A stretch of 64,000 bases of DNA from positions 160,001-224,000 of the forward strand of contig JAZJZE010000001.1 in the NCBI GenBank assembly GCA_040390065.1, given 5' to 3'. The stretch's first letter is position 1; every line of letters starts with the position of its first letter. Below, piece after piece: positions 6,886 through 39,984 of this stretch. The notes below the pieces were generated by a model that saw only the letters and a list, made by a program, of their open reading frames with translations, was not told where the DNA came from and did not search any database. Source of the stretch: a bacterium (GTDB lineage: Archaea > Thermoplasmatota > E2 > JACPAO01 > JAHFTW01). Made by a program: the position numbers and the translations under genes.

Positions 6886-7932
6886 CTAGCGCTTCGTCGT
6901 CTTGCGCACGGTCGGCAGCGTGTCCGGGGCACCTTTGACCCGGGGCTGCGTGTCGCGCCTTGCGGCGACAAGCCGGGCCGTCGGCGGCTGATAGCTGCGG
7001 TGGCTCGGGCAGTACTTGCTGCCCGTCCGGGACGTGTTGCGGCACTGGGCGCCGGCCGCCGTGATGGCAAGGCACTGCTCGCCCGGGATGATGGAGGTCG
7101 AGCGGCCCCGCACCGAGAGGAGGGCGTCGTCCGAGACGTCGTTGGCTGGCGTCGTGTCCAACATTTGCGCGAGCTTGCGTGCCCCAGGTGGCTGGTATCC
7201 CTTGTGGCTGGCGCAGTATTTGCTTGAGCCGCGCGTCGAGTTGCGGCACTGCGACCCATCTGTCGTGATGGCGGAGCATTGCGGGTGGTAGCCGTCATCG
7301 GATGACGGGGCTGCCTTCTTTGGCGGGCTCCGGGTCGGCGTGGAGACGCTGCGGCGCAGGAAGGGCAATCCGGTCTTGCTGTTCGCGCCGACCTCGTAGC
7401 CGGCCGGCATCGCACAAGGGACGCCCGACTTGGGCTTCGCCTTGGCGAAGAAGTACTGCGGCGAGCCATTGGCCGTGTGGCGGACGTGCAGCGTGTACCC
7501 GTTGTACGTGAAGACATCGTCCGCAGCGGGCGTGGTTTCGATCGCGAGCGCCATCGGGGCCGACGCAGGTGCAGACTCTGCCGTGCGGTGGACGCGAACC
7601 TGGACGCCCATGGAATCGGAGATGGCACCATTGGCGGCCATCACGTAAGGCGCATTGCAACCGGCGCATCGCACGGTCTGCGGCCTTGTCGTGAAGAGTT
7701 GGACGCTTTCGCCGCAACGCGAGCACGGGAAGTGCACGCGCGCCTGCGGAACTTCAAGGAAGACGTGCTGGACGCCGCCGAAGAAGGACTTGCGTACCAG
7801 CACGGCGCCGCGCTTCGTGTTGGCAAGGACGCGGCGCGACCCGATCGTCGTCGCATTGACGATGGTGGTGCCGGCGGGAAGGTTCTGCTGGAGATGGGAC
7901 TCGGCCCAGTCGGGAATCGGGTTGGCAGGCAT
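6886..7932 (-). CDS. Uncharacterised multi-zinc-finger protein A (shared N-domain + Zn ribbon + small basic domain + 2x CX9CX10CX2H)
   Basis: GAGGT ribosome-binding site; clear homology to 8431-9273 and to the N-terminus of 9270-10679. Confidence 0.85.
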   Translation of the reverse strand: MPANPIPDWAESHLQQNLPAGTTIVNATTIGSRRVLANTKRGAVLVRKSFFGGVQHVFLEVPQARVHFPCSRCGESVQLFTTRPQTVRCAGCNAPYVMAANGAISDSMGVQVRVHRTAESAPASAPMALAIETTPAADDVFTYNGYTLHVRHTANGSPQYFFAKAKPKSGVPCAMPAGYEVGANSKTGLPFLRRSVSTPTRSPPKKAAPSSDDGYHPQCSAITTDGSQCRNSTRGSSKYCASHKGYQPPGARKLAQMLDTTPANDVSDDALLSVRGRSTSIIPGEQCLAITAAGAQCRNTSRTGSKYCPSHRSYQPPTARLVAARRDTQPRVKGAPDTLPTVRKTTKR

Positions 7933-7987: not shown

Positions 7988-8434
7988 TCAGAACAGGATG
8001 CCGCGCAGAGTCTCCGCGAAGTAGTCCAGGTCGAACGGCTTGGCGATGAAGAGGCGCACGCCGAAGTCGCGCGTCGCCTGGACGACGAGGGCGGGGTCGG
8101 GGAAGGCCGAGATCATGATGCTGGGCGTGCCGGGGCGGACGCGGGCCGCCTCGTCCAGGAACTCGAGTCCGTTCATGCGTGGCATCTTGAAGTCCGTCAC
8201 GATGAGGTCGATGGCCTGCCGGCGCAGGATGTCCAAGCCCTGCATGCCAGACGTTGCGGTCGCCACCTCGACCGACGGCAGCGCTTGACCCAGGGCGCGC
8301 TTGATCGAGTCGACGACGTCGGGCTCGTCGTCGACGACGAGGACGCGGGCGCGGCGGGTCTTGGGCAGGGCCATGGGCGGCAGCGTCGTCTTCCCGGGGG
8401 CCGCTGGCTTGGGGCGGCCCGCGGGTTGGTTCAC
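7988..8434 (-). CDS. Stand-alone response regulator (REC only)
   Basis: VLVVDDE, IVTDFKMP phosphoacceptor, MISA, KPF. GTG overlaps the upstream stop (alternative ATG 8374). Confidence 0.9.
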   Translation of the reverse strand: MNQPAGRPKPAAPGKTTLPPMALPKTRRARVLVVDDEPDVVDSIKRALGQALPSVEVATATSGMQGLDILRRQAIDLIVTDFKMPRMNGLEFLDEAARVRPGTPSIMISAFPDPALVVQATRDFGVRLFIAKPFDLDYFAETLRGILF

Positions 8435-9273
8435 GGCGTCGCCTTCCGGCGGACGCTCGGGAGCGTGTCCGGTGCGGCCTTGACGCGGGGCAGCGTGTCC
8501 TCGCGCTGGGCCGCGGCCTTGGCGATGGCGGGCGGCTGGTAGCCGAAGTGGCTGGCGCAGTACTTGGATTCGTGGCGCGCCGAGTTGCGGCACTGGTGGC
8601 CGTCGCTCGTCAGGGCGGCGCACTGCGGCCTGTAGTGGTGCTCGGCTTCGGGGGTCAAGTCCTCGCCGTCGGGGGCCGTACCCTTCTTGAGGAACGGCAG
8701 GCCGGTCTTCTCGTTGACGCCGACGTGGTATCCCGCCGGCTTCGCACACGGTGCACCCGACCGGGGCTTCGACTTGGCGAAGAAGTAGATTGTCCGCGAG
8801 CCGCCGTTCTTGAGTTCGACCATGCGGCCGTGCAGGGTGAAGCCGTTGAACATGAACGGTCCCGCGGCCGTGGGGCTAGCCGGTGCAGTGCGCTCGCCGG
8901 TCGCGGGCAGCGTCGCAAGGCCGGGGGTCCACGACAGGCGGTCCTTGATCTCCGGAAGGCCACTCGTGTCGATGGCGTACTTGCTGCCGCAGATGCCGCA
9001 ATGCACCAGCGCTGGCAGGTCGAGGCGGCGGAACTCGAGTTGCTCCTGGCAGACGACGCATTGGAAGTTGACGCGTTCGCGTGGGTTGGCAAGAAGCTCG
9101 TGGCGCGGCTCGCCGAACCAGCGCTTCGTCACGACGACGGCGCCGATGCGGGTGTTGGCGACGACGACGCCGCGGCGGTGCACGGCGGCATTGAGGAGGA
9201 CGGCGTCCGCGGGCAGGTTTTCTTTCAGGTGGTTGAGAGCCCAGGCGGGCAGGTTGGTCTCGGGCATGGTCAT
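8431..9273 (-). CDS. Uncharacterised zinc-finger protein B (paralogue of A, one CX9CX10CX2H)
   Basis: ATGA overlap with the kinase stop; same domain order as protein A. Confidence 0.85.
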   Translation of the reverse strand: MTMPETNLPAWALNHLKENLPADAVLLNAAVHRRGVVVANTRIGAVVVTKRWFGEPRHELLANPRERVNFQCVVCQEQLEFRRLDLPALVHCGICGSKYAIDTSGLPEIKDRLSWTPGLATLPATGERTAPASPTAAGPFMFNGFTLHGRMVELKNGGSRTIYFFAKSKPRSGAPCAKPAGYHVGVNEKTGLPFLKKGTAPDGEDLTPEAEHHYRPQCAALTSDGHQCRNSARHESKYCASHFGYQPPAIAKAAAQREDTLPRVKAAPDTLPSVRRKATP

Positions 9274-10679
9274 GTCCTCTTGGGAGCGGTGGTCGCGGCG
9301 CGTCGATGCGCGGCATGCGCGGCCGGAGCGGGAAGTGTCACGGCAAAGCGTGCGCCCTTGCCTGGCCCGTCACTGTGGGCGGCGAGCGAGCCGCGGTGAG
9401 CCTTCGCGATGGCGCGGGCGAAGAACAGGCCAAGGCCCAATCCGCCCTGCGTCTGCATGCGGGCTGCCTCGAGCTGGATGAAGGGCTCGAAGATGCGCTG
9501 GGCGTCCGCCGCGTCGAAGCCGCAGCCTTCGTCCTCGACGGCGAGGTCGGCGCCGCCCGCCAGCCGCTTCGCCGTGACCGTGATGCGTCCTCCCGGCTCG
9601 CTGAACCGGATGGCGTTGGAGAGCAGGTGATCCACGGCCTCGCGCAGTCGGGCCTCGTCGGCGACGACGGGCACGCTTCGCGGAACGCGAACGGCAAGCC
9701 GCAAGCCTGCGGCATCGGCCTTCGGCTTCCACGCGGCGGCTGCGGCCTCCAGCAGGGGCGAAAGGTCGGTGGGCGCCAGGGCCAGCGGCAGTTGCCCGGC
9801 CTGCACCTGCGACACGCGCACGACGCTGGAGATGACGTCCTCGAGTCGTTTGGCGTTGCGCACGGCTTGCCGTACGGCCGCTTGCTGCGGCTCGCTGTTC
9901 GGCGCGCCCTCCAAGGTCCGCAGCGAAAGCAGGAGCGGCGTCATCGGCGTCTGCAGTTCGTGGGCGGCCGAATTGATGAACGTGGTCTTCATTGCCTCGA
10001 GTTGGGCGTCCGTCTGCGGGGCCGCCTCGTCGGCGGACTCGGAGCGGTTGAGTGCGGCCCATTCAGGCATGCGTCGGGCCATTGCAGTGCGGGCGGCGGA
10101 GACGAGGGCGGGCGTCGAGGTCGAGCCGGCGTTTGCCGTCGCGGCCAGTGCCTCAGCCGCCAGGCTCGCTGCCGAAGGGCCGGTGCGTGCATGGCGCCGG
10201 CACAGGGACGAGTCCGGCCGCGCCAGGTTGTGGCAGGGCGCGCCGCTTGCCGTTTCGCCAGCGCAGCGCGCCTGCGGGACCGGTGGCGCCGTGCGGGCGC
10301 GCGTCGTGATGCGAGCGGTGGCCCGGCTGCCGGAGGGCGGCGCGCTGGCAGGCGCCGGGGCATCGACGCGGCCGTGCATATCGACGGCAATCGGCTTGCC
10401 GCAGTGGCCGCAATGGACGGTCGTTGGGACGACGAGTTGGCGGAACTCCAAGGCCTGGTGGCAGGTCGGGCAGGGGAAACGCAGGCGTTCGCGCGGGCTT
10501 GGCAACAGTCGATGCGTCGGCGCGCCAAAACGGCTCTTGGTCAGGACGACGGCGCCAAAGCGCGTGTTTCCGAAGACGACGCCGCGCCGGTGGACGCGGA
10601 CGTTGTAGACTTGGCCGAGCAGGGGCAGATTGTCGCGCACATGCTGCAGAGCCCATGCCGGAATCGTTGCCTTGCCCAT
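9270..10679 (-). CDS. Cytoplasmic sensor histidine kinase with zinc-finger input domain
   Basis: H-box AAHELQTPMT, N-box LLSNAIRFS, G1 DEGCG, G2 GGLGLGL; no TM segment; start MGKATIPAW at 10679. Confidence 0.9.
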   Translation of the reverse strand: MGKATIPAWALQHVRDNLPLLGQVYNVRVHRRGVVFGNTRFGAVVLTKSRFGAPTHRLLPSPRERLRFPCPTCHQALEFRQLVVPTTVHCGHCGKPIAVDMHGRVDAPAPASAPPSGSRATARITTRARTAPPVPQARCAGETASGAPCHNLARPDSSLCRRHARTGPSAASLAAEALAATANAGSTSTPALVSAARTAMARRMPEWAALNRSESADEAAPQTDAQLEAMKTTFINSAAHELQTPMTPLLLSLRTLEGAPNSEPQQAAVRQAVRNAKRLEDVISSVVRVSQVQAGQLPLALAPTDLSPLLEAAAAAWKPKADAAGLRLAVRVPRSVPVVADEARLREAVDHLLSNAIRFSEPGGRITVTAKRLAGGADLAVEDEGCGFDAADAQRIFEPFIQLEAARMQTQGGLGLGLFFARAIAKAHRGSLAAHSDGPGKGARFAVTLPAPAAHAAHRRAATTAPKRT

Positions 10680-10683
10680 CGTC

Positions 10684-10938
10684 TCACGGTCGTTGCGCAA
10701 TAGTGATGCGGGCGGTGTCGTCGCCGGCGGCCAGGATGTCGGGGATGCTTGTCGCGGCCGGGCGGGGGCGGGCAAAGTAGAGCAGGATGAGCGTCAGGAC
10801 GAAGGCCGCGTAGAGAAACAGCAGCGGAACCATCCAGCGCGACTCGTTGCGGGTGTAGTCGAGAACGACGGCGACGAAGAACAGGACGTTGGCCAGGAAG
10901 CCGATCTTCATGCCCCAGCGGACGGTGCGGCGCTTCAC
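10684..10938 (-). CDS. Small two-TM membrane protein
   Basis: 84 aa with two hydrophobic helices; GTGA overlap with the upstream gene. Confidence 0.7.
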   Translation of the reverse strand: MKRRTVRWGMKIGFLANVLFFVAVVLDYTRNESRWMVPLLFLYAAFVLTLILLYFARPRPAATSIPDILAAGDDTARITIAQRP

Positions 10939-30881: not shown

Positions 30882-31517
30882 ATGCCCAACGCGTACCACT
30901 ACATCGGAGAAGCCTGGAAGAACCACGAGAACGGCTACGGCACGGCCCAATGGAGCCGCCTCGTGGAATGGCGCGCCGGCGACTCGTTCGTCCGCGTCGA
31001 CCGCCCCCTGCGTCTCGACCGCGCCCGCAGCCTGGGATACAAAGCCAAGCAAGGCATCGTGATCGTCCGCGCCCGCGTCCGCCGTGGTGGCCTGCACAAG
31101 GTCCGCCCGGTCCAGGGCCGAGTCCCCTCCAAGATGGGTGTCAACAAGATCACGATGCGCGAGAACATCCAGTCCATCGCGGAGATCCGCAGCTCCAAGC
31201 ACTTCCCCAACCTGGAGGTCCTCAACTCCTACTGGATCGGCGAGGACGGCAAGCACCAGTACTACGAGGTCATCATGGTGGACCCGCACCACCCGTCCAT
31301 CATCAACGACAAGGACCTCGGCTGGCTCGCCACGACGCCGGCGACGAAGCGTGTCCTGCGCGGCCTGACGTCGGCCGGCAAGAAGCACCGCGGCCTGCGC
31401 TACAAAGGCAAGGGCTCGGAGCACACGCGCCCGTCCGTCCGACAGTCCGGCGTGCGCGCCAAGGACAAGCTCCTGTGGAAGAAACAGGACCAGGCGCGCA
31501 GAATCCGCGTCAGCTAG
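30882..31517 (+). CDS. rpl15e: 50S ribosomal protein L15e
   Basis: RLDRARSLGYKAKQG, NLEVLNSYWIGEDG, RGLTSAGKKHRGL. Confidence 0.97.
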   Translation: MPNAYHYIGEAWKNHENGYGTAQWSRLVEWRAGDSFVRVDRPLRLDRARSLGYKAKQGIVIVRARVRRGGLHKVRPVQGRVPSKMGVNKITMRENIQSIAEIRSSKHFPNLEVLNSYWIGEDGKHQYYEVIMVDPHHPSIINDKDLGWLATTPATKRVLRGLTSAGKKHRGLRYKGKGSEHTRPSVRQSGVRAKDKLLWKKQDQARRIRVS

Positions 31518-31686
31518 GCGAAGCCTGCGACACGCCTGATTCTGAGCGGCCTGCCGCTGCGGTCCGACTTGCTCGGGCCGCAGCGCCAGGCGTGCCGCAT
31601 GCGTGTCATCCAGCCGCCCTCGACCGTCGATGGCGCAGCTCACGTCGCTGCGCAATGGCTAAGCGAAGCGCATGCCATTGCGCCGC

Positions 31687-31872
31687 GTGGCATTCACCCA
31701 CAACGGCTACACCCTGCACGCACGCGAGGTCGCCTTGAAGGGCGGCCACAAGCAGGTCATCTATTTCTTCAGCCAGCGCAGGCCTCAAAGCGGCATGCCG
31801 GTCGAGATGCCCGAAGGGTACGACGTGGCCGTCAACAAGCGCACGGGGCTGCCGTACCTGAAGAAGAAGTAG
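31687..31872 (+). CDS. Small basic protein; free-standing copy of the domain in proteins A and B
   Basis: NGYTLH...IYFFS...SGMP..MPEGYDVAVNKRTGLPYLKKK (alternative start 31672). Confidence 0.85.
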   Translation: MAFTHNGYTLHAREVALKGGHKQVIYFFSQRRPQSGMPVEMPEGYDVAVNKRTGLPYLKKK

Positions 31873-31875
31873 TGC

Positions 31876-31964
31876 GGCGCGACGGTTTCGCCTCGCTCAC
31901 CCATCGCGCCGGGGGCCGCCGTCGGCGACCCGCACGCGCTCGCCTGCGGCTCGCGCGTCGCGCC
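31876..31964. repeat. Tandem-GA/triloop hairpin cassette
   Basis: Bounded by GGCGCGACG/CGTCGCGCC; minus strand reads ACGCGC-GA-GCC-GCA-GGC-GA-GCGCGT. Confidence 0.65.
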
Positions 31965-32035
31965 TGTTGGGCCACAACCTCTTGCAAGTTGTTTGCGGCG
32001 ACGAGCCTTAACTCGCGCCGTGTCCTGCCACCAAC

Positions 32036-32380
32036 ATGGACCGCAGGCTGTTGTTGGCGTCCGCCGCGTTGCTCCTGACTGTGGCTGCCTTGTCCCATCT
32101 GATTGCTGCCATGTCCGGAGGGGTACCAAGTTTTGCCCTCGCGGTCGCGGCCATCGCGGGCGCCGGCCTCGTTGCTCTCGTGGCGGCAATGCCGGACGGG
32201 GGCCGCCTGACGATGGGGGGTATCGGCGGGCTGGGTGCCCTGCTCGTGATGGTGCCGTTTGCCACCTCATGGCCGGCTGTCGTGACGAGCGAAGCCGGAA
32301 TTGTCCCTCTTGTTCTCGGCGCGGCCGGCTGCGGGCTGCTGGCCCTTGCCCTGGTCCGGGCCCGTGTGCGCGCGGCCTAG
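32036..32380 (+). CDS. Small four-TM membrane protein
   Basis: 114 aa, almost entirely hydrophobic. Confidence 0.6.
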   Translation: MDRRLLLASAALLLTVAALSHLIAAMSGGVPSFALAVAAIAGAGLVALVAAMPDGGRLTMGGIGGLGALLVMVPFATSWPAVVTSEAGIVPLVLGAAGCGLLALALVRARVRAA

Positions 32381-32415
32381 CCAACCCTTTTTCCGTTAGG
32401 CGTTGTGGCCGGGCC

Positions 32416-33144
32416 ATGGAGGACGACACCGAGGACGACGACTTCGAGGACGAGGAAGAGGAAGGCGTCGACCTCGACTGCCCGACGTGCCGCGAGGTGC
32501 AGACCCACGAGGTGCTGCGCGCTGCAGCCGCAGGATGGACGGTGCGCTGCATGGAGTGCCAGACGACGCGCACGCTGCCCGCCCCACCGAAGGAGCGCAC
32601 AATCGAGGTCCCCGTGATCCTGAGCGAAGGCGCCACGGCGCGCACGGTTCGCCTGGCCATTCCCCTCGACGGGCCGGTGTCCCCGGACGACGAATTCGAC
32701 CTCGAGGGTCACCGCGTCCGCATCACGGCGGTCGAACTCCCCAACGGCGAACGGCCCAAGAAGGCGCTCGGCCGCAACGTGCGCACGCTCTACGCCGTCA
32801 TGTTCGACACGGTTCCCCTGGATTACACCCTCAACGAAGGCGAGACGACGCGCTCCTTCCGCGAACAAGTCGCCCCGGAGGAAGAGGTGCACGTCGGCAC
32901 CGTCCGCGAAGTGCAGGGCGTCAAACTCGTCGTGAAGACCCTCAAGTCGGACCAGAACCGCACCCTCCACAGCGGCTACCTCCTCGCCCGCAACGTGCGC
33001 CGCGTCTTTGCCGACGTCGCCAACCCGCGGGCCCGGCATGGCCAGCGGCACAGGGCCCGCAAACGCGGCCCGCCCCCAGGTGTGCGCGGCAAGCCAAAGA
33101 ACCGCGTCAAGAAGCCCGGTCCAAGCCGGCCCCGCCGCTCCTGA
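32416..33144 (+). CDS. Archaeal zinc-finger protein (HVO_0476/COG1326-like)
   Basis: CPTC...HEVL...VRCMEC followed by VPVILS and VRITAVE. Confidence 0.75.
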   Translation: MEDDTEDDDFEDEEEEGVDLDCPTCREVQTHEVLRAAAAGWTVRCMECQTTRTLPAPPKERTIEVPVILSEGATARTVRLAIPLDGPVSPDDEFDLEGHRVRITAVELPNGERPKKALGRNVRTLYAVMFDTVPLDYTLNEGETTRSFREQVAPEEEVHVGTVREVQGVKLVVKTLKSDQNRTLHSGYLLARNVRRVFADVANPRARHGQRHRARKRGPPPGVRGKPKNRVKKPGPSRPRRS

Positions 33145-33190
33145 GGCCGTCACCCCAAGGGCTTAAGCCCTCCTGGGTTCCGGGCTGTCC

Positions 33191-33616
33191 ATGGCCTCCG
33201 CCAAGAAGACCGCCCCCGCGAAGAAGAGCGCCCCGAAGCCGGTGGCGAAGGCCCCCGCAAACGCCCCGGCCAAGATGCCGGCCAAGCCTGCAGCGCAAGG
33301 CGCGAAGCCGTCACCTCAAGGCGGAAAGTCCGCGGGCAAGCCCATGCCGGCCCCCAAGGGCACCCTCGCCGCATCCGCCGGCGCCAAGATGCACGCCGCC
33401 GACGAAGAGGCCCCCGTCGTGCTCCCCAAGTTCAAGCTCGAGAAGCACGCCGGCAAGGACACCCTCTGCCAGATCGAGATCGTCAAGGACGGCCACTTCT
33501 TCATCGCCCGCACCGTCACCGAAGGCGGCGCCGCCAAGGAATACAAGAACACCGTCTTCGAAGACCTCCTCACGGAGATGGTGATTACGCTGCAGGAACA
33601 ACTCTCCGACCACTGA
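33191..33616 (+). CDS. Hypothetical protein with histone-H1-like Ala/Lys/Pro N-terminus
   Basis: KKTAPAKKSAPKP tract plus a compact acidic C-domain; CTTAAG about 28 nt upstream. Confidence 0.75.
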   Translation: MASAKKTAPAKKSAPKPVAKAPANAPAKMPAKPAAQGAKPSPQGGKSAGKPMPAPKGTLAASAGAKMHAADEEAPVVLPKFKLEKHAGKDTLCQIEIVKDGHFFIARTVTEGGAAKEYKNTVFEDLLTEMVITLQEQLSDH

Positions 33617-33830
33617 ACGGGTTCGCTTCGCTCACCCGTTCAGTGGCTGGCTGAGGAACCCGCCGCTGGGGGCCCTCCGGGCCCCCAGACCCCCTCGGAG
33701 GAAAGGGCGGCCGCTCACACCGCGCGGCTCGTCGCCGCGCGTGTTCCTGCGCGCCGGGCGCCCGCCTTCGGGGCGCCAAGGCACGCCTGCTCGCTGCGCT
33801 CGCGAGCGGCCGCCCAGGCCGGCCGCGCAG
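33610..33830. repeat. Tandem-GA/triloop hairpin cassette
   Basis: 13-bp stem CCACTGAACGGGT / ACCCGTTCAGTGG around TC-GC-TTC-GC-TC; CTGGGGGCCC-TCC-GGGCCCCCAG-ACCCCC; further stems. Confidence 0.75.
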
Positions 33831-34197: not shown

Positions 34198-35244
34198 TCA
34201 GATGGCGTCGCGAATCCCTTGTTCGGTCACATTGACCACGGCTTCGCCTTCGGGCAGGTGCGGGCTGTCGACGAGGCGGCAGATGCGCTTTCCGCCCTTG
34301 CTCTTGCGCAGGTAGATGCGGAAGGTGCTGGTGTGGCCGACGATGTGGCCGCCGATGGGGCGCGTCGGATCGCCGAAGAAGGCATCCGGCTTGGCGCTCA
34401 CTTGGTTCGTGACGACGCAGGCGGCGTTGTTGATGCCGGCCAGGCGCTGGAGGTCGTGCATGTGCTTGTTGAGTTTGCCTTGGCGGTCGGCGAGTGTGCC
34501 GCGGCCGACGAACTCGGCGCGGAAGTGCGCCGTCAAGGAATCGACGATGATGAGCTTGATCGGGAACTCGCGGCAAAGTTCCGCGGCGCGTTCCGCCAGC
34601 AGCATCTGGTGGTTGGAGTTGAAGGCGCGGGCGACGTGGATCTTCTTGAGGGTCTCCGTCGGGTCCATGCCGAGGGCCTCGGCCATCTGGGTGATGCGCT
34701 CGGGGCGGAAGGTGTTCTCCGTGTCGATGAAGAGGGCGTGGCCCTCGAGGCCGCCGTCCGCTTGGGAGCGCTGCACGTTGACCGCGAGCTGCATGGCGAA
34801 CTGGGTCTTGCAGGAGCCGAACTCACCGTAGAACTCGGTGATGGCCTGCGTCTCGATGCCGCCGCCCATGAGTTCGTCGAAGGCCTTGGCCCCGGTGCCG
34901 ATCTTGGTGACGGTCTTGCGGCGCTCGGCCACTTCGAGGCCGGTCTCGAAGCCGCCGACGTCGGCAAGCTTGCGGGCCGCGTTGATGATCTTCTGGGCGA
35001 TGCCTTCGCCGATGTCGCACTTCTCCGCGATGTCGCCGGGGGACGCAACAGCGATGGCCATGAGGTCCTCGTAGCCGGCCTCTTTCATCTTCTCCGCGGT
35101 GGCGGGGCCGACGCCGGGGAGGTCCTCCACGGTCATGCGGATGTGCCCCTCGCGCTTCGGGTCGTTCGTGATGTTCGCGTCGTTTTCCAAGGTTGCGTCG
35201 TAGTCTTCTTCCATGGCAACCGATTCCTTCTGTTTTCTGGCCAT
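34198..35244 (-). CDS. radA: DNA repair and recombination protein RadA
   Basis: N-terminal HhH ([12 protein letters not shown]), [40 protein letters not shown]. Confidence 0.97.
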
Positions 35245-35355
35245 TTGAGGCACCAGCCGTCTGGAGCCTTGGCCCGGAGTTAGCCATGAAAGCCCAGGTG
35301 GATGAAAGTACTGGTGCAGGCCGCGGCCTGGACAGGAGCCAGAAGGCCCCGGCCG

Positions 35356-38300
35356 TTACTTGCCCTTCTTGGCCCGGGCGTCGTGCAGCTTCAGCAGGGC
35401 GTCGATCTTGGCTGCGTCGTAGCCCGGTGGGCCGGTGGGCGCCTTGGCCCCGATGCGTTCGACCAGCTTGCCTGCGGCGGGGCGGGCAGCCGGCGGCGGG
35501 ATGGGCATGCGCGGCGGCGCCGGTGCGGGCGGGGTCGGCCGCGCAGGGGCTGGGACGCCACGCGGCTGGATCGCGACGCGCGCCGCGGCTTGCACGGCCG
35601 GCGGCTCCCACGCTGGCACGGCGGCGGCTTCGCGACGCGCCTTCTCGGCGGCAGCGGCCGCCGCGCGGGCCCTTGCCTCCTCCTCGTCGCGACGCTTGGC
35701 CTCGGCCTCTGCCTGCGCATCCTGGCGGGCGATCTCGTCGCGGTGGGCTTTCTCGGCGTCCTCGCGTTCGCGGTCGCGGGCAAGCCGGGCGGCTTCCTTG
35801 GCCTGCTCCTTGGCTTGCCGTTCCGCTTCCTTCTCGGCGGCGGCCTGAGCCTTGGCCTGCTCCTTCTCGCGAGCCGCGCGCTCCTTCTCTTCGCGGCGGC
35901 GCGTCTCCTCCGTTTCCCGCTGGGTTTCCTTGGCCTTGTCGCGGGCAAGCGCCTGCGCGGCGGCCTGAGCCTCGGATTCGGCGGCATCGCGGGCCGCCTT
36001 CTCCTTCTGCTCGCGGCGGCTGAGGTCGGATTCCACCGGTTTGGCGTCAGCCTCGATGGTCTTCTCCTTGCGCAGTCGTGAGAGGAAGGCCTTCTTCTCG
36101 GGGGCCTCGGCAGTTGCCGCGGCAGGAGTGTCGGGCTTGGCGCGGCCGAAGCGACCCAAGAGGCCCTTCTTGGTCTCCGCGGGCTCCTCAGGCTCGGGCG
36201 TCGCGGTGATCTCCACGACCTTGCCAGCCTTGCCCTTCTTCACGACGACGACGGGCTCGGCGGGGGGCTCAGGTTTCGTCTCCGCCGGGGGCGCGTCGTC
36301 CGCCTTCTTGGGCTTGAATCGTGACAGGAATCCGGGCTTCGGCGCCTCTTCGGTAGCGGGCGCGGACGGGGGCTCGACGACGATGACCTTGCCGGCCTTG
36401 CCCTTCTTGGGCGCTTCGAGGACCGCGGGCGGCGCCGCCTCGGCGTCCGGCTTGGCCTTGCGTGCGAAGCGGCCGAGCAGGCCCTTCTTCGGCTCCTCTG
36501 CGGGGGAAGTCTCGACCGGGGCGGCCTTGGATTTCTTGCCGTCCTTGACGACTTCGACCTTCGCGGCCGCCTTGGGCTCGTCGGCGCCCTTCTTCGAGGC
36601 CTTCTTTGCCTCTTTGGCGGCGAGTTTGGCTGCGGCCGCTTCCTCCTTGGCCTTCACTTTGGCGGCCTTCGCGGCCTCTTTCTTCTGGCGCTTGAGGTCG
36701 CGCCTGGAGAGTGCGGGCGCTCCGGCAGGCGCTTCGGCCTTGGCCTTGCCGCGCAAGCGCGACAGCAATCCAGCTTTCGTCTCCTCGGGCTTGGCCTTCT
36801 TGCCCTTGGGCGTCGCGTCGGCCTGCTTGGCCTTGTCGGCCTTCCCTTTCTTGCCTTTCCGGAAACGCCCCAACAGGCCGGCCTTGGGCGCTTCCTTGGC
36901 CGCCTTCTTCTCGGCCTTCTTGGCGGCGGCACGCTCCTTCCGCGAGAGCTTGGGCTCGGCTGCGTCCTTCTTGCCACGGCGCAGGACACGGGCCAGCAAC
37001 CCGGCCTTGGCGTCCTCGGAGATGGGCTTGTCGGCGGCCGAAACAGGGGGCGCGGCGGGGGCAGCCTCCTGCACCTTGGCGGCCTTCCTGGTTGGGATTG
37101 GCGCGACGGCAGGAGTCGGCTCCTCCTCGCCCTTGCGCCGCAATCGGCCGAGAAGCGACGGCTTGGCCGGGGCCACGGTTTCCTCGCCGCGAGCTTCGGC
37201 CTTCGCCTTCTGCTTGGCAAGCCGGGCCGTCTCCTTGGCCTTGGCAAAGTCCGCCTTGCGCTTGGCTTCGGCGGCCTTGCGTTCCTCCTTGAGGCGTTCC
37301 TTCTCTTCACGGCGCAGCGCGCGCAGGTCGGCAGGCTTCTCCTCGACGGGGGGCGCCTCGACGGGAACGAGGGCCTCGGTGACGTGGAAGCCGGCGGGCG
37401 TCGTGTACTCCCGGCCCGCGCGGTGGCCGAAGGCGTAGACGCGGCCGTGCTCGCCACGCTCGTCCTCCGGCAGCTTCTCGAACGGGCTCACGTCGCCGGG
37501 CAGCCGCGGCTTCGGGTGGCTGTGCTTGTCCTCGGGCAGGACCTCGAACGGGCTGCGGCCGTCGGGCAGGCGGGGCTTCGGGTGCGGCGCGTGCTCGTCG
37601 TCGGGCAGGCGCGCAAACGGACTCGTGCCATCGGGCAGGCGCGGCGCGTCGTGGATGTGGCGGTCCGCGTCGATGCGGGCAAACGGGCTGCGGCCGTCGA
37701 CGAGCCGGACCTTCTCGTGGGCGGCGGCCTTGCGATCGGCCTTGTCGGTCTTCTCGTCCCAGTCGTCGCGACGAGCCTCTTGGGATTGCTGCCAGACGGA
37801 ACCCTCGTACGGGCTGGAGAGCGGCTTCGCGATGGCTTGCTCCCACAGCGAGGAGGACTTGCCCGCGAGTTTGTCTTCGCGTTCGCGGCGGCGTGCCATC
37901 TCACGTTCGCGGCGCTCCAGTTCGCGGCGGTGGCGCTTGTCGGCCCGGGCCGCGGCGCGGGGATCTGGCGCCTTGGATTCGTCCTTCTTGGGTTTCGCTT
38001 CGGCGGGCTTGCCTCTTGCCTCGAGCTTGGCGGCCTTGGCCTTTGCCTTCGCCGCCTTCTTGGCATCCTTGGCGGCCTTCTTCGCCAGCTTGCGAGCCAG
38101 TTTTTCCTCGCGCTTGCGCAGGGCGGCGGCCTGCTTGTCGGTCGCCTCGCCAGGGAACGGCTCGGTGGTCTTGGCCTTCTTGCCGAACGGGATGAGGCGA
38201 CCGAGTCCGGCGCCTTCCGGCTTCTCCTTGCCCTTCCCGGCCTTGGCTTTCTCCGGCTTGTCGGGCTTGGCCGCGGCCTTGTCATCCTTGCGGCCGAACG

Positions 38301-39984
38301 GCAGCGCGAAGCGGGATGCCTTCTCCGGCTCCGCTTTCGCAGGCTTTGCCTCCTTCGTGTCGCCCTTGCGTCCGAAGGGCAGCGCGAAGCGCGACGGTTT
38401 CTCGGCCTCGCCCTTTGGCGGCATCTTCGCCGGCTTGGCGTCCTTGGCGTCCGTCGCGGGCTCGACCACGGTCTTGCGGCCGAACGGCAGGCGCAAGCGG
38501 CTCTCGGCCTTGTCCTTCGGTACCGCGACCGGCGGCGCCTTCTTGGGGCCCTCGTCACCGGCGTCCACGACGACTTTCTTGCCGAAGGGCAGGCCGAAGC
38601 GGCGACCCTTGGCCTCGTCGACGTCGGGTTTGGCCGGCTTGTCCTTGCGGCCGAAGCGCAGGAGGCCGGCCTTGGCGGGTTCTTCCGGCTTCGCGGTTTT
38701 CGCGGCTGGGGCGGGCTTGTCCTCCCTCGTCCGGCGCAAGCGCGCAAACAGGCCGGGTTTTGCCTCGGCCTTTGGCTTGGCGCCGCCCTTGGGCTTGACG
38801 GGCTCGGCCTTTGGAGCCTCTTCCTTCGCGCCGCGCCCGAACCTTAGCAGTGAGCGCTTGGCTGCCGGGTCCGTCGCAGCAGGTTTCGCGTCGGCCTCGG
38901 CGGCTTTCGCCTGCTTGGCCGCGAGCTTGGCAGCGGCCTCGTCCTCTTTGGCTTGGCGCTTGGCCTCAGCCTTCGCGGCTTTCATCGCCTTCTTGTCGGG
39001 CGCGGGGGCCCCCGGTGTCTGGCCGGCGAGGCCGAGGAGGGACTTGCACTTCGGGCAGGTTGCCTGGACGGCATCGCTTGGCGCTTCGAAGACGTGGTTG
39101 CACTGCGCGCACTCAACAACCTGCTTGCCCGCTGACGGTGCAGGAAGGGCTGGCGCGACCGGAGGTGTCGGAATCGTCACCTTGGCTGGCCGGCGGGGCG
39201 GCGCAGCGGCCGTGGTTGCAGGAGGCTCGGGTTCGGGCGGCGCGTCGGATTTCGCCTTGCCGCGCAGGCGGAACAGCAGGCCGCGCGTCTTGCGGACCGG
39301 ATGCGTCTCGGCGGCCACGTCCACTTCGACGCTGGCTTTGGACTTGCGGCCGAAGCGGTGCAGGAACCCGCGTTCGGCCTCGTGCTTGGCCTCGGCGGCG
39401 TGCTCCTTGGCGTCGACGGCCTCGGCCGGATGGTCCTCGTCGTCCTTGTCGGCCGAATCCGGCTTGGCGATGAGCTCCTTGCGGAGTGCTTCTGCGCCGG
39501 GGTCGGCGTGCCGCGGCTTGAGCTTGCGGGCCGCCTTGATCCACTTGGCCGTGAGCTTGGCCGTGACGGGGACGCCGATGACGTTCTGCTCGAGGCTGTC
39601 GAGGTACGCTTGGATCTTGGCCGCAAGCGCCTCGGCTTCCTGCTGGGCGAGCTCGTAGATCGAGTTGATCTGGACGCGCACCAGCACTTCGGCAAACTGC
39701 GGGCCCACACCCTTCAGGCGGATGAGTTCCGCCATGTCCTGCCAGCTGCGGATGCGCGCCGCAGGGATGCCGGTCTTCTTGGCGAGCTCCTCGGCGTCCG
39801 CGGCCACGAGTTGTTCGCTGTTGTCCACGCCCTTCTGCCGGAGCTTCAATGTGAACGTCGGCCCGATGCCCTCGATGTCCAGGATGGGGATGCCGGCGCC
39901 CGTGGCGGGAGTGCGGTCGCGCCAGCGTAGGAAACGGCGGCGCGCCGAGCCGGCTGCGGCTTCGTCGGTGGAGGGCTTCGCCAT
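35356..39984 (-). CDS. Giant Lys/Ala/Pro-rich protein with N-terminal HhH (DUF4332-like) domain, zinc ribbon and repeated amphipathic motifs
   Basis: DIEGIGP, LIRLKGVGPQFAEVL, CAQC...CPKC; 1542 codons with consistent GC3 bias. Confidence 0.85.
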   Translation of the reverse strand: MAKPSTDEAAAGSARRRFLRWRDRTPATGAGIPILDIEGIGPTFTLKLRQKGVDNSEQLVAADAEELAKKTGIPAARIRSWQDMAELIRLKGVGPQFAEVLVRVQINSIYELAQQEAEALAAKIQAYLDSLEQNVIGVPVTAKLTAKWIKAARKLKPRHADPGAEALRKELIAKPDSADKDDEDHPAEAVDAKEHAAEAKHEAERGFLHRFGRKSKASVEVDVAAETHPVRKTRGLLFRLRGKAKSDAPPEPEPPATTAAAPPRRPAKVTIPTPPVAPALPAPSAGKQVVECAQCNHVFEAPSDAVQATCPKCKSLLGLAGQTPGAPAPDKKAMKAAKAEAKRQAKEDEAAAKLAAKQAKAAEADAKPAATDPAAKRSLLRFGRGAKEEAPKAEPVKPKGGAKPKAEAKPGLFARLRRTREDKPAPAAKTAKPEEPAKAGLLRFGRKDKPAKPDVDEAKGRRFGLPFGKKVVVDAGDEGPKKAPPVAVPKDKAESRLRLPFGRKTVVEPATDAKDAKPAKMPPKGEAEKPSRFALPFGRKGDTKEAKPAKAEPEKASRFALPFGRKDDKAAAKPDKPEKAKAGKGKEKPEGAGLGRLIPFGKKAKTTEPFPGEATDKQAAALRKREEKLARKLAKKAAKDAKKAAKAKAKAAKLEARGKPAEAKPKKDESKAPDPRAAARADKRHRRELERREREMARRREREDKLAGKSSSLWEQAIAKPLSSPYEGSVWQQSQEARRDDWDEKTDKADRKAAAHEKVRLVDGRSPFARIDADRHIHDAPRLPDGTSPFARLPDDEHAPHPKPRLPDGRSPFEVLPEDKHSHPKPRLPGDVSPFEKLPEDERGEHGRVYAFGHRAGREYTTPAGFHVTEALVPVEAPPVEEKPADLRALRREEKERLKEERKAAEAKRKADFAKAKETARLAKQKAKAEARGEETVAPAKPSLLGRLRRKGEEEPTPAVAPIPTRKAAKVQEAAPAAPPVSAADKPISEDAKAGLLARVLRRGKKDAAEPKLSRKERAAAKKAEKKAAKEAPKAGLLGRFRKGKKGKADKAKQADATPKGKKAKPEETKAGLLSRLRGKAKAEAPAGAPALSRRDLKRQKKEAAKAAKVKAKEEAAAAKLAAKEAKKASKKGADEPKAAAKVEVVKDGKKSKAAPVETSPAEEPKKGLLGRFARKAKPDAEAAPPAVLEAPKKGKAGKVIVVEPPSAPATEEAPKPGFLSRFKPKKADDAPPAETKPEPPAEPVVVVKKGKAGKVVEITATPEPEEPAETKKGLLGRFGRAKPDTPAAATAEAPEKKAFLSRLRKEKTIEADAKPVESDLSRREQKEKAARDAAESEAQAAAQALARDKAKETQRETEETRRREEKERAAREKEQAKAQAAAEKEAERQAKEQAKEAARLARDREREDAEKAHRDEIARQDAQAEAEAKRRDEEEARARAAAAAAEKARREAAAVPAWEPPAVQAAARVAIQPRGVPAPARPTPPAPAPPRMPIPPPAARPAAGKLVERIGAKAPTGPPGYDAAKIDALLKLHDARAKKGK

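Follow-up and report, generated by a model that had tools for sequence, protein, structure and literature searches.

A small basic all-beta domain of uncultured Thermoplasmatota, free-standing and fused, as a candidate nucleic-acid-binding module

The 64-kb stretch of archaeal DNA analysed here (the window; positions 160,001 to 224,000 of contig JAZJZE010000001.1, assembly GCA_040390065.1; 67.5% G+C) encodes a free-standing basic protein of 61 amino acids (aa) whose domain recurs inside two larger proteins of the same window, A and B. We tentatively propose that the domain is a new candidate module for binding nucleic acids without sequence specificity, probably one with a role in DNA architecture. 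Nucleic-acid binding, high abundance and the architectural role are properties that we infer; the candidate role of a nucleoid-associated protein (NAP) is consistent with the fusion partners of the domain, its multi-copy genes, its conservation at the level of the recombinase RadA and the scarcity of known NAPs in its lineage. The three genes are as follows.

31687..31872, plus strand: 61-aa basic all-beta free-standing protein, GTG start, TAG stop; the founding member here of an apparently undescribed domain family.
8431..9273, minus strand: protein B, 280 aa; N-terminal module of helix and sheet with a zinc ribbon (aa 4-113), then a disordered linker and the domain.
6886..7932, minus strand: protein A, 348 aa; the same N-terminal module as B, domain, two CCCH motifs.

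Counted from its first ATG, the open reading frame (ORF) of the free-standing protein occupies 31672..31872 on the plus strand and encodes 66 aa. The N-terminus is M-A-[FY] in 35 of 35 aligned orthologues, matching the GTG at 31687; because the orthologues begin at this position, 31687..31872 (61 aa plus stop), as initially annotated, is the best gene model. The composition of the 61-aa ORF is coding-like, with G+C fractions of 0.90 at third codon positions (GC3) and 0.39 at second positions (GC2). Comparison with 15 close orthologues gives nonsynonymous divergence (dN) of 0.03-0.22 and synonymous divergence (dS) of 0.51-1.17, a range like that of the neighbouring RadA, and dN/dS of approximately 0.06-0.29. 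The gene is real and under purifying selection; a chance ORF is ruled out by dN/dS together with the homologues of the protein.

The initial annotation held that the free protein is the same domain as that embedded in A and B, 22-24 kb away, and both parts of this statement are borne out. BLASTP aligns the 61-aa protein with B at 32 of 58 identical positions (E 5e-22) and with A at 30 of 59 (E 2e-19), so that the likeness over a shared domain of approximately 60 aa is, as sequence comparison goes, far beyond chance; the genes of A and B lie 22.4-24.8 kb from the 61-aa gene. A six-frame motif scan locates exactly three copies in the window, on the plus strand near 31693 and on the minus strand near 8856 and near 7512. 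The domain occupies aa ~140-197 of B (DNA 8680..8859) and aa ~141-195 of A (DNA 7348..7515), and A and B are paralogous over their full length (42% identity over 287 aa, E 3e-68). The source genome, which is 89% complete, has five copies in all, three of them in the window; the fourth is a second, apparently free-standing paralogue on contig 9, and the fifth belongs to a 403-aa acidic protein encoded on contig 5, close to its C-terminal end. Two tRNA-Tyr genes precede the second free-standing paralogue (L004, C9:469231-472407), and the long open frame reported at this place is an artefact that comes from reading through both.

As had been noted initially, the protein is small, basic and built of beta strands with aromatic residues: its isoelectric point (pI) is 9.99, with ten lysines and arginines, four acidic residues and seven aromatic residues, and its predicted structure has four strands. 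The pI is 9.5-10.6 in 24 of the 25 rows of a family alignment (A1: 20 free-standing proteins, three with a basic N-terminal tail, and the segments of A and B), the remaining row being acidic. Across the family alignments the domain has at least seven aromatic residues, mostly invariant; the conserved aromatics are Y/W8, Y26, F27, F28, Y45 and Y57, and the conserved basic residues are R13, K18, K/R31, K51, R52 and a C-terminal KKK.

Neither the 61-aa nor the 66-aa protein matches any family in Pfam or NCBIfam. Scanned singly against Pfam at E ≤10, the 25 members of A1 give only Lipoprotein_15 and PapG_N, which are unrelated one-off matches, and a profile search of PDB sequences gives a single non-significant match (E 0.58). 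The 62 proteins returned by a word-indexed search are 36-116 aa long, have 56-89% identity and are without exception annotated as hypothetical, the named ones coming from metagenome-assembled genomes (MAGs) of Thermoplasmatota; an exhaustive profile search extends the family to 857 cluster representatives at E ≤1e-3 (431 at E ≤1e-10), of which all named ones are likewise Thermoplasmatota. The ESM Atlas yields only the family's own Thermoplasmatota clusters and no usable match among named clusters. A literature search with the terms used found no description of the domain, which does not imply that none is in print. On the evidence of these searches, the family is undescribed, uncatalogued and restricted to Thermoplasmatota.

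The AlphaFold2 model of the 61-aa protein, built on a 25-sequence alignment, has a mean pLDDT of 95.5 and a predicted template-modelling score (pTM) of 0.77, with beta strands at 8-16, 22-29, 45-49 and 56-60 and no helix. Within the model of B the domain is likewise confident (pLDDT 90-96), parted from the N-terminal module by a disordered linker. Foldseek against PDB gives a best E of 0.63 and nothing at E ≤1e-3, and VIA-align in wide mode lists 9 of 48,161 representative chains with Z ≥2 (best Z 2.4), a family missing from such a list not being excluded thereby. The only convincing structural look-alike comes from BFVD: a 78-aa uncharacterised siphovirus protein (A0A8S5TRK4; template-modelling score 0.73 on the query, root-mean-square deviation 2.8 over 67 alignment columns, Foldseek probability 1.00, E 4e-3, 19% identity), which gives no functional clue. 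The predicted fold is thus a confident one without a solved relative. Profile search and structure prediction, recommended at the outset as checks on a chromatin-related domain, delivered a large family and a confident model but no likeness in sequence or fold to any DNA-binding protein.

The domain is near-universal and multi-copy in the window's class. It was found in 128 of the 401 sampled genomes of the phylum and not found in 273; within the class, it occurs in 18/18, 13/14, 54/54, 4/4 and 12/12 genomes of five families (f1, f4, f5, f6 and f7, respectively), with 2-10 matches per genome, and four other large families of the phylum yielded no match (0/48, 0/36, 0/24 and 0/58 genomes). The best 80 loci from species-representative genomes all belong to uncultured archaeal MAGs, 74 labelled Thermoplasmata, Thermoplasmatota or Thermoplasmatales and six labelled as other euryarchaea. 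The 61-aa protein is conserved as strongly as RadA: 35 radA-linked orthologues are 66-95% identical to the window copy and share 29 invariant columns out of 61, and RadA from 33 of the same loci (L026 being left out for an internal stop) is 62-94% identical. In a tree of 367 domain segments, built on 62 columns and with most forks unresolved, the free 61-aa forms make up one short-branched clade of 60 rows (57 of them free; SH-aLRT 98), and the domains of A and B fall in separate, longer-branched clades of fused forms.

Among the best 150 of the 857 representatives, 22 are free-standing (≤85 aa), 24 have 86-130 aa and 13 contain two tandem copies; the domain is at the extreme C-terminus of a longer protein in 50 and internal in 41. 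The 103 representatives longer than 130 aa were scanned for partner domains (40 at E ≤1e-3, 63 at E ≤1e-4). The commonest partner is helix-hairpin-helix (HhH), present in 23 of the 103, often in the form of multiple HhH_5 units with the domain after them, at the extreme C-terminal end; next are CCCH motifs (zf-TRM13_CCCH/DUF5763) in eight and DUF2188 in three, besides one endonuclease VII (P0107) and one Lrp/AsnC RAM domain (P0127), to which a further RAM fusion cluster (P0253) can be added. Judged by sequence, the RAM fusions resemble Lrp/AsnC regulators in which the usual helix-turn-helix domain has been swapped for the new one. In one B-type protein (P0089), HhH stands in place of the C-terminal CCCH motif. 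Two matches are of low value: DUF7139 on P0133, which stays under its cut-off, and Trypan_PARP on P0072, where the stretch matched is of low complexity. A search for longer proteins gives 206 at E ≤1e-5, and 35 of 120 among the matches listed constitute a subfamily of ~351-362 aa with DUF2188; P0068 (360 aa) has the same architecture, a membrane anchor, two tandem copies and DUF2188. The available part of the source on DUF2188 describes it as uncharacterised and defence-linked.

One recurrent architecture (P0132, P0151, P0160, P0189), which matches no assigned family, consists of a conserved N-terminal 'LRxILD...RRL' motif, a segment with 'PKVxIH' and 'EDLYEVEK...PEFxEVKP', a long acidic low-complexity linker, HhH and the domain at the C-terminus. 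The contig-5 protein of the source genome (L005, C5:70455-73631) begins with the 'LRxILD...RRL' motif.

The genes around the 61-aa gene are also part of the evidence, and those concerned are listed here.

30882..31517, plus strand: ribosomal protein L15e; adjoins the 61-aa gene in the source genome only through an inversion.
32416..33144, plus strand: CPxCG-related zinc-finger protein (PF19769); second gene of a conserved three-gene block.
33191..33616, plus strand: third gene of the block; its 141-aa product has a basic N-terminal tail rich in Ala, Lys and Pro, and a C-terminal domain that is conserved.
34198..35253, minus strand: RadA recombinase; in relatives the same-strand gene immediately before the 61-aa gene.

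Gene order in relatives is radA(+), 61-aa gene(+), CPxCG zinc-finger gene(+), 141-aa gene(+), L15e(-), and in close relatives the 61-aa gene heads the conserved one-strand block of three. Compared with at least 20 relatives (L006-L027), the window has this block (31687-33616) inverted between the L15e gene and radA, and its L15e adjacency is therefore secondary. A weak inverted repeat (17 nt, 82%; 31654-31670 / 33624-33640) exactly brackets the block but does not speak for any mechanism. The radA gene is directly upstream in 40 of 77 informative loci; its end lies 48-518 nt before the 61-aa gene, with both on one strand, in 20 of 22 close loci and 62-107 nt before it in 20 of 55 distant ones. 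Paralogues of the domain gene occupy three recurrent contexts; besides radA, copies are located upstream of Rpr2(Rpp21)-S19e-PDCD5-L31e in 11 of 80 loci and have as neighbour, in 10 of 80, the gene of a membrane protein that carries a RAM domain at its C-terminus. The conserved places beside radA and the Rpr2/S19e cluster make a housekeeping role likely. A complex prediction for RadA with the 61-aa protein (score 0.00, mark 0.32), run without controls, counts neither for nor against an interaction.

In the spacers of 17 low-GC radA-linked loci, aligned by eye, a TATA-like element with a transcription factor B recognition element (BRE), 'gaaaaaCTTAAAtg', is conserved in position ~40-45 nt before the ATG, and a Shine-Dalgarno sequence GGAGGT is present in the same 17 of 17 loci. 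The positional conservation of the BRE/TATA-like element indicates that the 61-aa gene has its own putative promoter. A cruder count by regular expressions, weak evidence in AT-rich DNA, gives TATA-like elements in 57 of 57 loci and Shine-Dalgarno-like ones in 49 of 57; a scan for sigma-70-type promoters gives nothing, as expected for an archaeon. In the window, a hairpin (31646-31659 / 31674-31687; 14 nt, 93% complementary) takes in the TATA-like element 'AATGGCTAAGCG' and reaches as far as the GTG start; 'caatggctaagcg' is retained at the corresponding place in L008, the nearest relative.

Known chromatin proteins of the lineage were surveyed by six-frame searches of incomplete MAGs with hidden Markov models (HMMs) for HU, histone fold, Alba and MC1, so that a negative is to be read as 'not found' rather than 'absent'. 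The source genome, searched in the same manner, has no histone-fold, Alba, MC1, Cren7 or Sul7d match; it has one HU gene (PF00216, Bac_DNA_binding) outside the window (C1:258435-258704, L086). In a sample of 61 genomes of the class, HU was found in 11, a histone fold in four (one of them strong) and Alba in 42. Alba is present in 41 of 41 sampled genomes of f4, f5, f6, f7, f8 and f51 and was found in none of 18 genomes of the window's family; this pattern suggests a loss at the level of the family. MC1 was found in none of 32 genomes of the window's family. Eleven of the 18 genomes of that family (completeness 85-94%) gave no match to HU, histone, Alba or MC1, and each of these holds 3-6 matches to the new domain. 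The available text of a study of archaeal NAPs reports several Thermoplasmatota lineages without any known chromatin protein and states that HU homologues are confined to Thermoplasmatales (10.1101/2021.07.08.451601); HU in the source genome and in 11 of the 61 class genomes contrasts with the confinement stated in that text. The part of the Thermoprofundales transcriptome paper that was available (PMC6461988) has no passage on histones or DNA-binding proteins.

In the mechanism that we envisage, the domain would present to nucleic acid a sheet face rich in conserved aromatics and flanked by conserved basic residues, and would bind without sequence specificity, most probably to DNA. The free 61-aa proteins, encoded by 2-4 near-identical genes per genome, each apparently with its own promoter, would be abundant architectural (chromatin-like) proteins whose function may be akin to that of Cren7 or Sul7d in Crenarchaeota. 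Copies embedded in larger proteins, A and B among them, would tether multi-domain proteins to DNA, the tethered proteins contributing sensor-like, HhH, CCCH, endonuclease VII or RAM modules. Binding of a polyanion, most likely DNA, is the best fit on four grounds: the dominant partners, HhH, CCCH and endonuclease VII, act on nucleic acids; the RAM fusions look like Lrp/AsnC regulators, as described above; the free forms are tiny, basic, extremely conserved and multi-copy with near-identical sequences, and have a strong-looking promoter of their own, as abundant architectural proteins do; and many genomes of the window's family have none of the surveyed classical archaeal chromatin proteins.

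Several findings weigh against this proposal. The model, confident as it is, matches no DNA-binding fold, and its one good match is an uncharacterised phage protein. No recognisable partner was found in 63 of the 103 long forms. The membrane-anchor/DUF2188 subfamily is large and its partners are not DNA-related, nor are the amino-acid permeases whose C-termini accompany the domain in two of the 103, and endonuclease VII as a partner is represented by a single sequence, present on two short contigs. The conserved position next to radA and ribosomal genes gives no clue to the polymer bound. The source genome has its HU gene, and the rest of the class has Alba (42/61), so that the protein is not needed everywhere to fill an empty niche.

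The conserved aromatic-rich beta strands with basic flanks would also suit a binder or chaperone of single-stranded DNA (ssDNA) or RNA, similar to a cold-shock protein (Csp) or a small single-stranded-DNA-binding protein, with the aromatic sheet face stacking on bases. One paralogue would then serve recombination beside RadA, the gene directly upstream in 40 of 77 loci, and another would serve translation or RNase P beside Rpr2/S19e, as in the 11 of 80 loci upstream of Rpr2-S19e-PDCD5-L31e; moreover, the CCCH partner matches the motif of the tRNA methyltransferase TRM13, and the multi-copy pattern is like that known to us from Csp families. We nevertheless consider an ssDNA or RNA binder unlikely: HhH, the commonest partner (23/103), is a binder of the duplex-DNA backbone, endonuclease VII acts on branched duplex DNA, the source genome already has a cold-shock domain (CSD) protein, and neither Foldseek against PDB nor VIA lists an OB or CSD fold, an unlisted fold again not being excluded thereby. 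Fused forms are numerous and a genome holds several copies that are almost identical, which argues against a ribosomal protein.

Nor does an interaction with protein account readily for the domain. A module for protein-protein contacts or oligomerisation, acting by beta-sheet extension or by binding either HhH proteins (including the HhH N-domain of RadA) or the acidic linkers that often precede it, would agree with the tandem duplications in 13 of the best 150 representatives, with a predicted helix-free four-stranded sheet that leaves one face uncovered, with the very diverse architectures, membrane proteins and permease tails among them, and with the co-occurrence of HhH in fusions and, through RadA, in synteny. 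It is quite improbable, given that conservation at the level of RadA in 2-4 near-identical copies would need a very abundant partner, that the consistently high pI points to a polyanionic ligand, and that the gene seems to be under a promoter of its own, with no obvious co-transcription with radA. That ligand could in principle be another polyanion or a small molecule (polyphosphate, acidic phospholipid head groups, a metabolite), bound by a regulatory output or input domain, as the basic charge and the fusions to membrane anchors, permease C-termini and the ligand-binding RAM domain might indicate; we regard this as very improbable, for it leaves the dominance of HhH and CCCH, the endonuclease fusion and the information-processing neighbourhoods unexplained.

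Archaeal chromatin proteins are famously lineage-specific. Beyond the DNA-architectural module proposed above, it is conceivable, though doubtful, that an entire class of uncultured Thermoplasmatota, the lineage to which MBG-D-type MAGs such as SG8-52-3 belong, has the 61-aa protein as its main chromatin protein. This would be a new DNA-packaging fold that replaced Alba, histones and HU in the window's family, and HhH scaffolds, nucleases, RAM regulators and a two-component system would each have taken up its domain to anchor themselves to DNA. The protein offers a concrete candidate for a chromatin protein, tiny, easily expressible, confidently predicted in its fold, near-universal and multi-copy, in a large, globally common and uncultured class. 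Should it turn out to have no part in chromatin, its domain would still merit a family entry and a structure, being uncatalogued, known from at least 857 cluster representatives and present in many architectures.

The two-component system just mentioned is that of the locus of A and B, where two further genes are relevant.

9270..10775, minus strand: histidine kinase, 501 aa; N-terminal module of the A/B type, one CCCH motif, then HisKA and HATPase_c.
7988..8374, minus strand: single-domain response-regulator receiver, 128 aa from an internal ATG; between B and A.

The initial annotation inferred that A and B are fusions linked to a phosphorelay. Locally this stands: the order on the minus strand is kinase, B, receiver, A, with short gaps or overlap, the kinase stop overlapping the start of B. 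The kinase has no copy of the domain; what it has in common with B is the N-terminal module (48% identity, E 1e-36) and one CCCH motif (E 5e-4). As a general feature of the family the link does not hold: a genome search located the N-terminal module, present in three copies in the source genome, in 7 of 21 relatives, each a member of the same genus, and a search for related loci with this module of B alone returned no relative. Among six loci examined, the kinase-B arrangement recurs in one further genome, and three other loci have a pair of domain-bearing genes with no kinase within the 3.3-kb locus. Real though it is, the tie of A and B to a phosphorelay is young, narrow and confined to the genus.

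In the model of B, the N-terminal module is confidently predicted as helix plus sheet followed by the zinc ribbon; its fold matches are only middling, the best being 2lyx (Z 5.9), followed by a bacterial PH-domain protein (Z 5.1) and the LysW zinc ribbon (Z 4.7). The zinc ribbon of A, B and the kinase has the form CxxC...CxxC. The CCCH motif common to these three proteins, C-x7-G-x2-C-x9-10-C-x2-H, bears a weak likeness to zf-TRM13_CCCH, DUF5763, HGG_STG and the N-terminus of GvpO; it occurs at aa 219-243 and 287-311 of A and at aa 218-242 of B, where a disordered C-terminal tail with DTxP motifs follows. The C-termini of A and B contain a repeated 'DTxP...PDTxPxVR' peptide that is kept in distant homologues.

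Some neighbours of the 61-aa gene deserve mention in their own right. The 141-aa protein (pI 9.5), which travels with the 61-aa gene in close relatives, has a tail that brings H1-like tails to mind and, at its C-terminus, a conserved domain of ~70 aa without a Pfam match, and may, to judge from these features, be another nucleoid-related protein. Directly upstream of radA on the same strand is the gene of a 1542-aa protein (35356-39984, minus strand), in which only an N-terminal DUF4332/HhH_5 is recognisable. In distant radA-linked loci (L028-L084), a gene like that of NAD kinase follows the 61-aa gene in 22, and MtrA/MtrH-like genes are upstream of radA in 14-15.

The initial annotation had also tentatively suggested a resemblance to small chromatin candidates of Thermoplasmatota. 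The protein meant was presumably a 74-aa protein of Methanomassiliicoccales. According to the available text of the study concerned, this lysine-rich candidate NAP (WP_019177984.1/AGI86273.1) was proposed for Methanomassiliicoccales and has orthologues throughout that order and in Sphingomonadales bacteria (10.1101/2021.07.08.451601). As described there, it is small and basic, without a known DNA-binding domain, and comes from a Thermoplasmatota lineage without known NAPs; the 61-aa protein is small and basic too, and its length lies well within the NAP size limit of that text (<290 aa; 10.1101/2021.07.08.451601). Unlike WP_019177984.1 as there described, the 61-aa family has no named bacterial match and was not found in 273 of the 401 phylum genomes; to judge from these phyletic patterns, the two families are probably different. 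Pfam, Foldseek against PDB and VIA found no known DNA-binding domain or fold in the 61-aa protein, whose partners suggest one only by association.

HU (HTa) resembles the 61-aa protein as a candidate architectural protein in histone-less Thermoplasmatota. It differs from it in its fold and is unrelated in sequence, the 61-aa protein giving no match to the HU/HTa HMM (PF00216), and it is patchy in the class (11/61) where the new domain is near-universal. The protein does not match the CSD HMM (PF00313) either; the CSD gene of the genome is at C5:29750-29953. Sul7d is encoded by several nearly identical gene copies, and the small, basic, beta-rich and multi-copy character of Sul7d, Sso7d and Sac7d is found again in the 61-aa family. 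The C-terminal helix of Sul7d has no counterpart in the model of the 61-aa protein, for which no fold match to Sul7d was found, and the Sul7d/Sso7d HMM (PF02294) gives no match, with a positive Sulfolobus control. The Cren7 HMM (PF11520) matches neither the 61-aa protein nor the source genome, again with a positive Sulfolobus control, and neither Foldseek against PDB nor VIA in wide mode (best Z 2.4) lists Cren7 or other SH3-like chains for the four-strand model; membership in Cren7 or Sul7d is excluded at the sequence level and finds no support from the fold searches, in which an unlisted family is not thereby excluded. Cren7, a chromatin protein of Crenarchaeota, has ~60 residues and is basic, all-beta, monomer-sized, lineage-restricted and near-universal within its lineage; its size, basic charge, all-beta make-up and lineage-limited near-universality are also features of the 61-aa protein, which belongs to a different phylum. 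We know of no promiscuous fused occurrence of Cren7, whereas the new domain occurs both as a free form and as a promiscuous fused domain.

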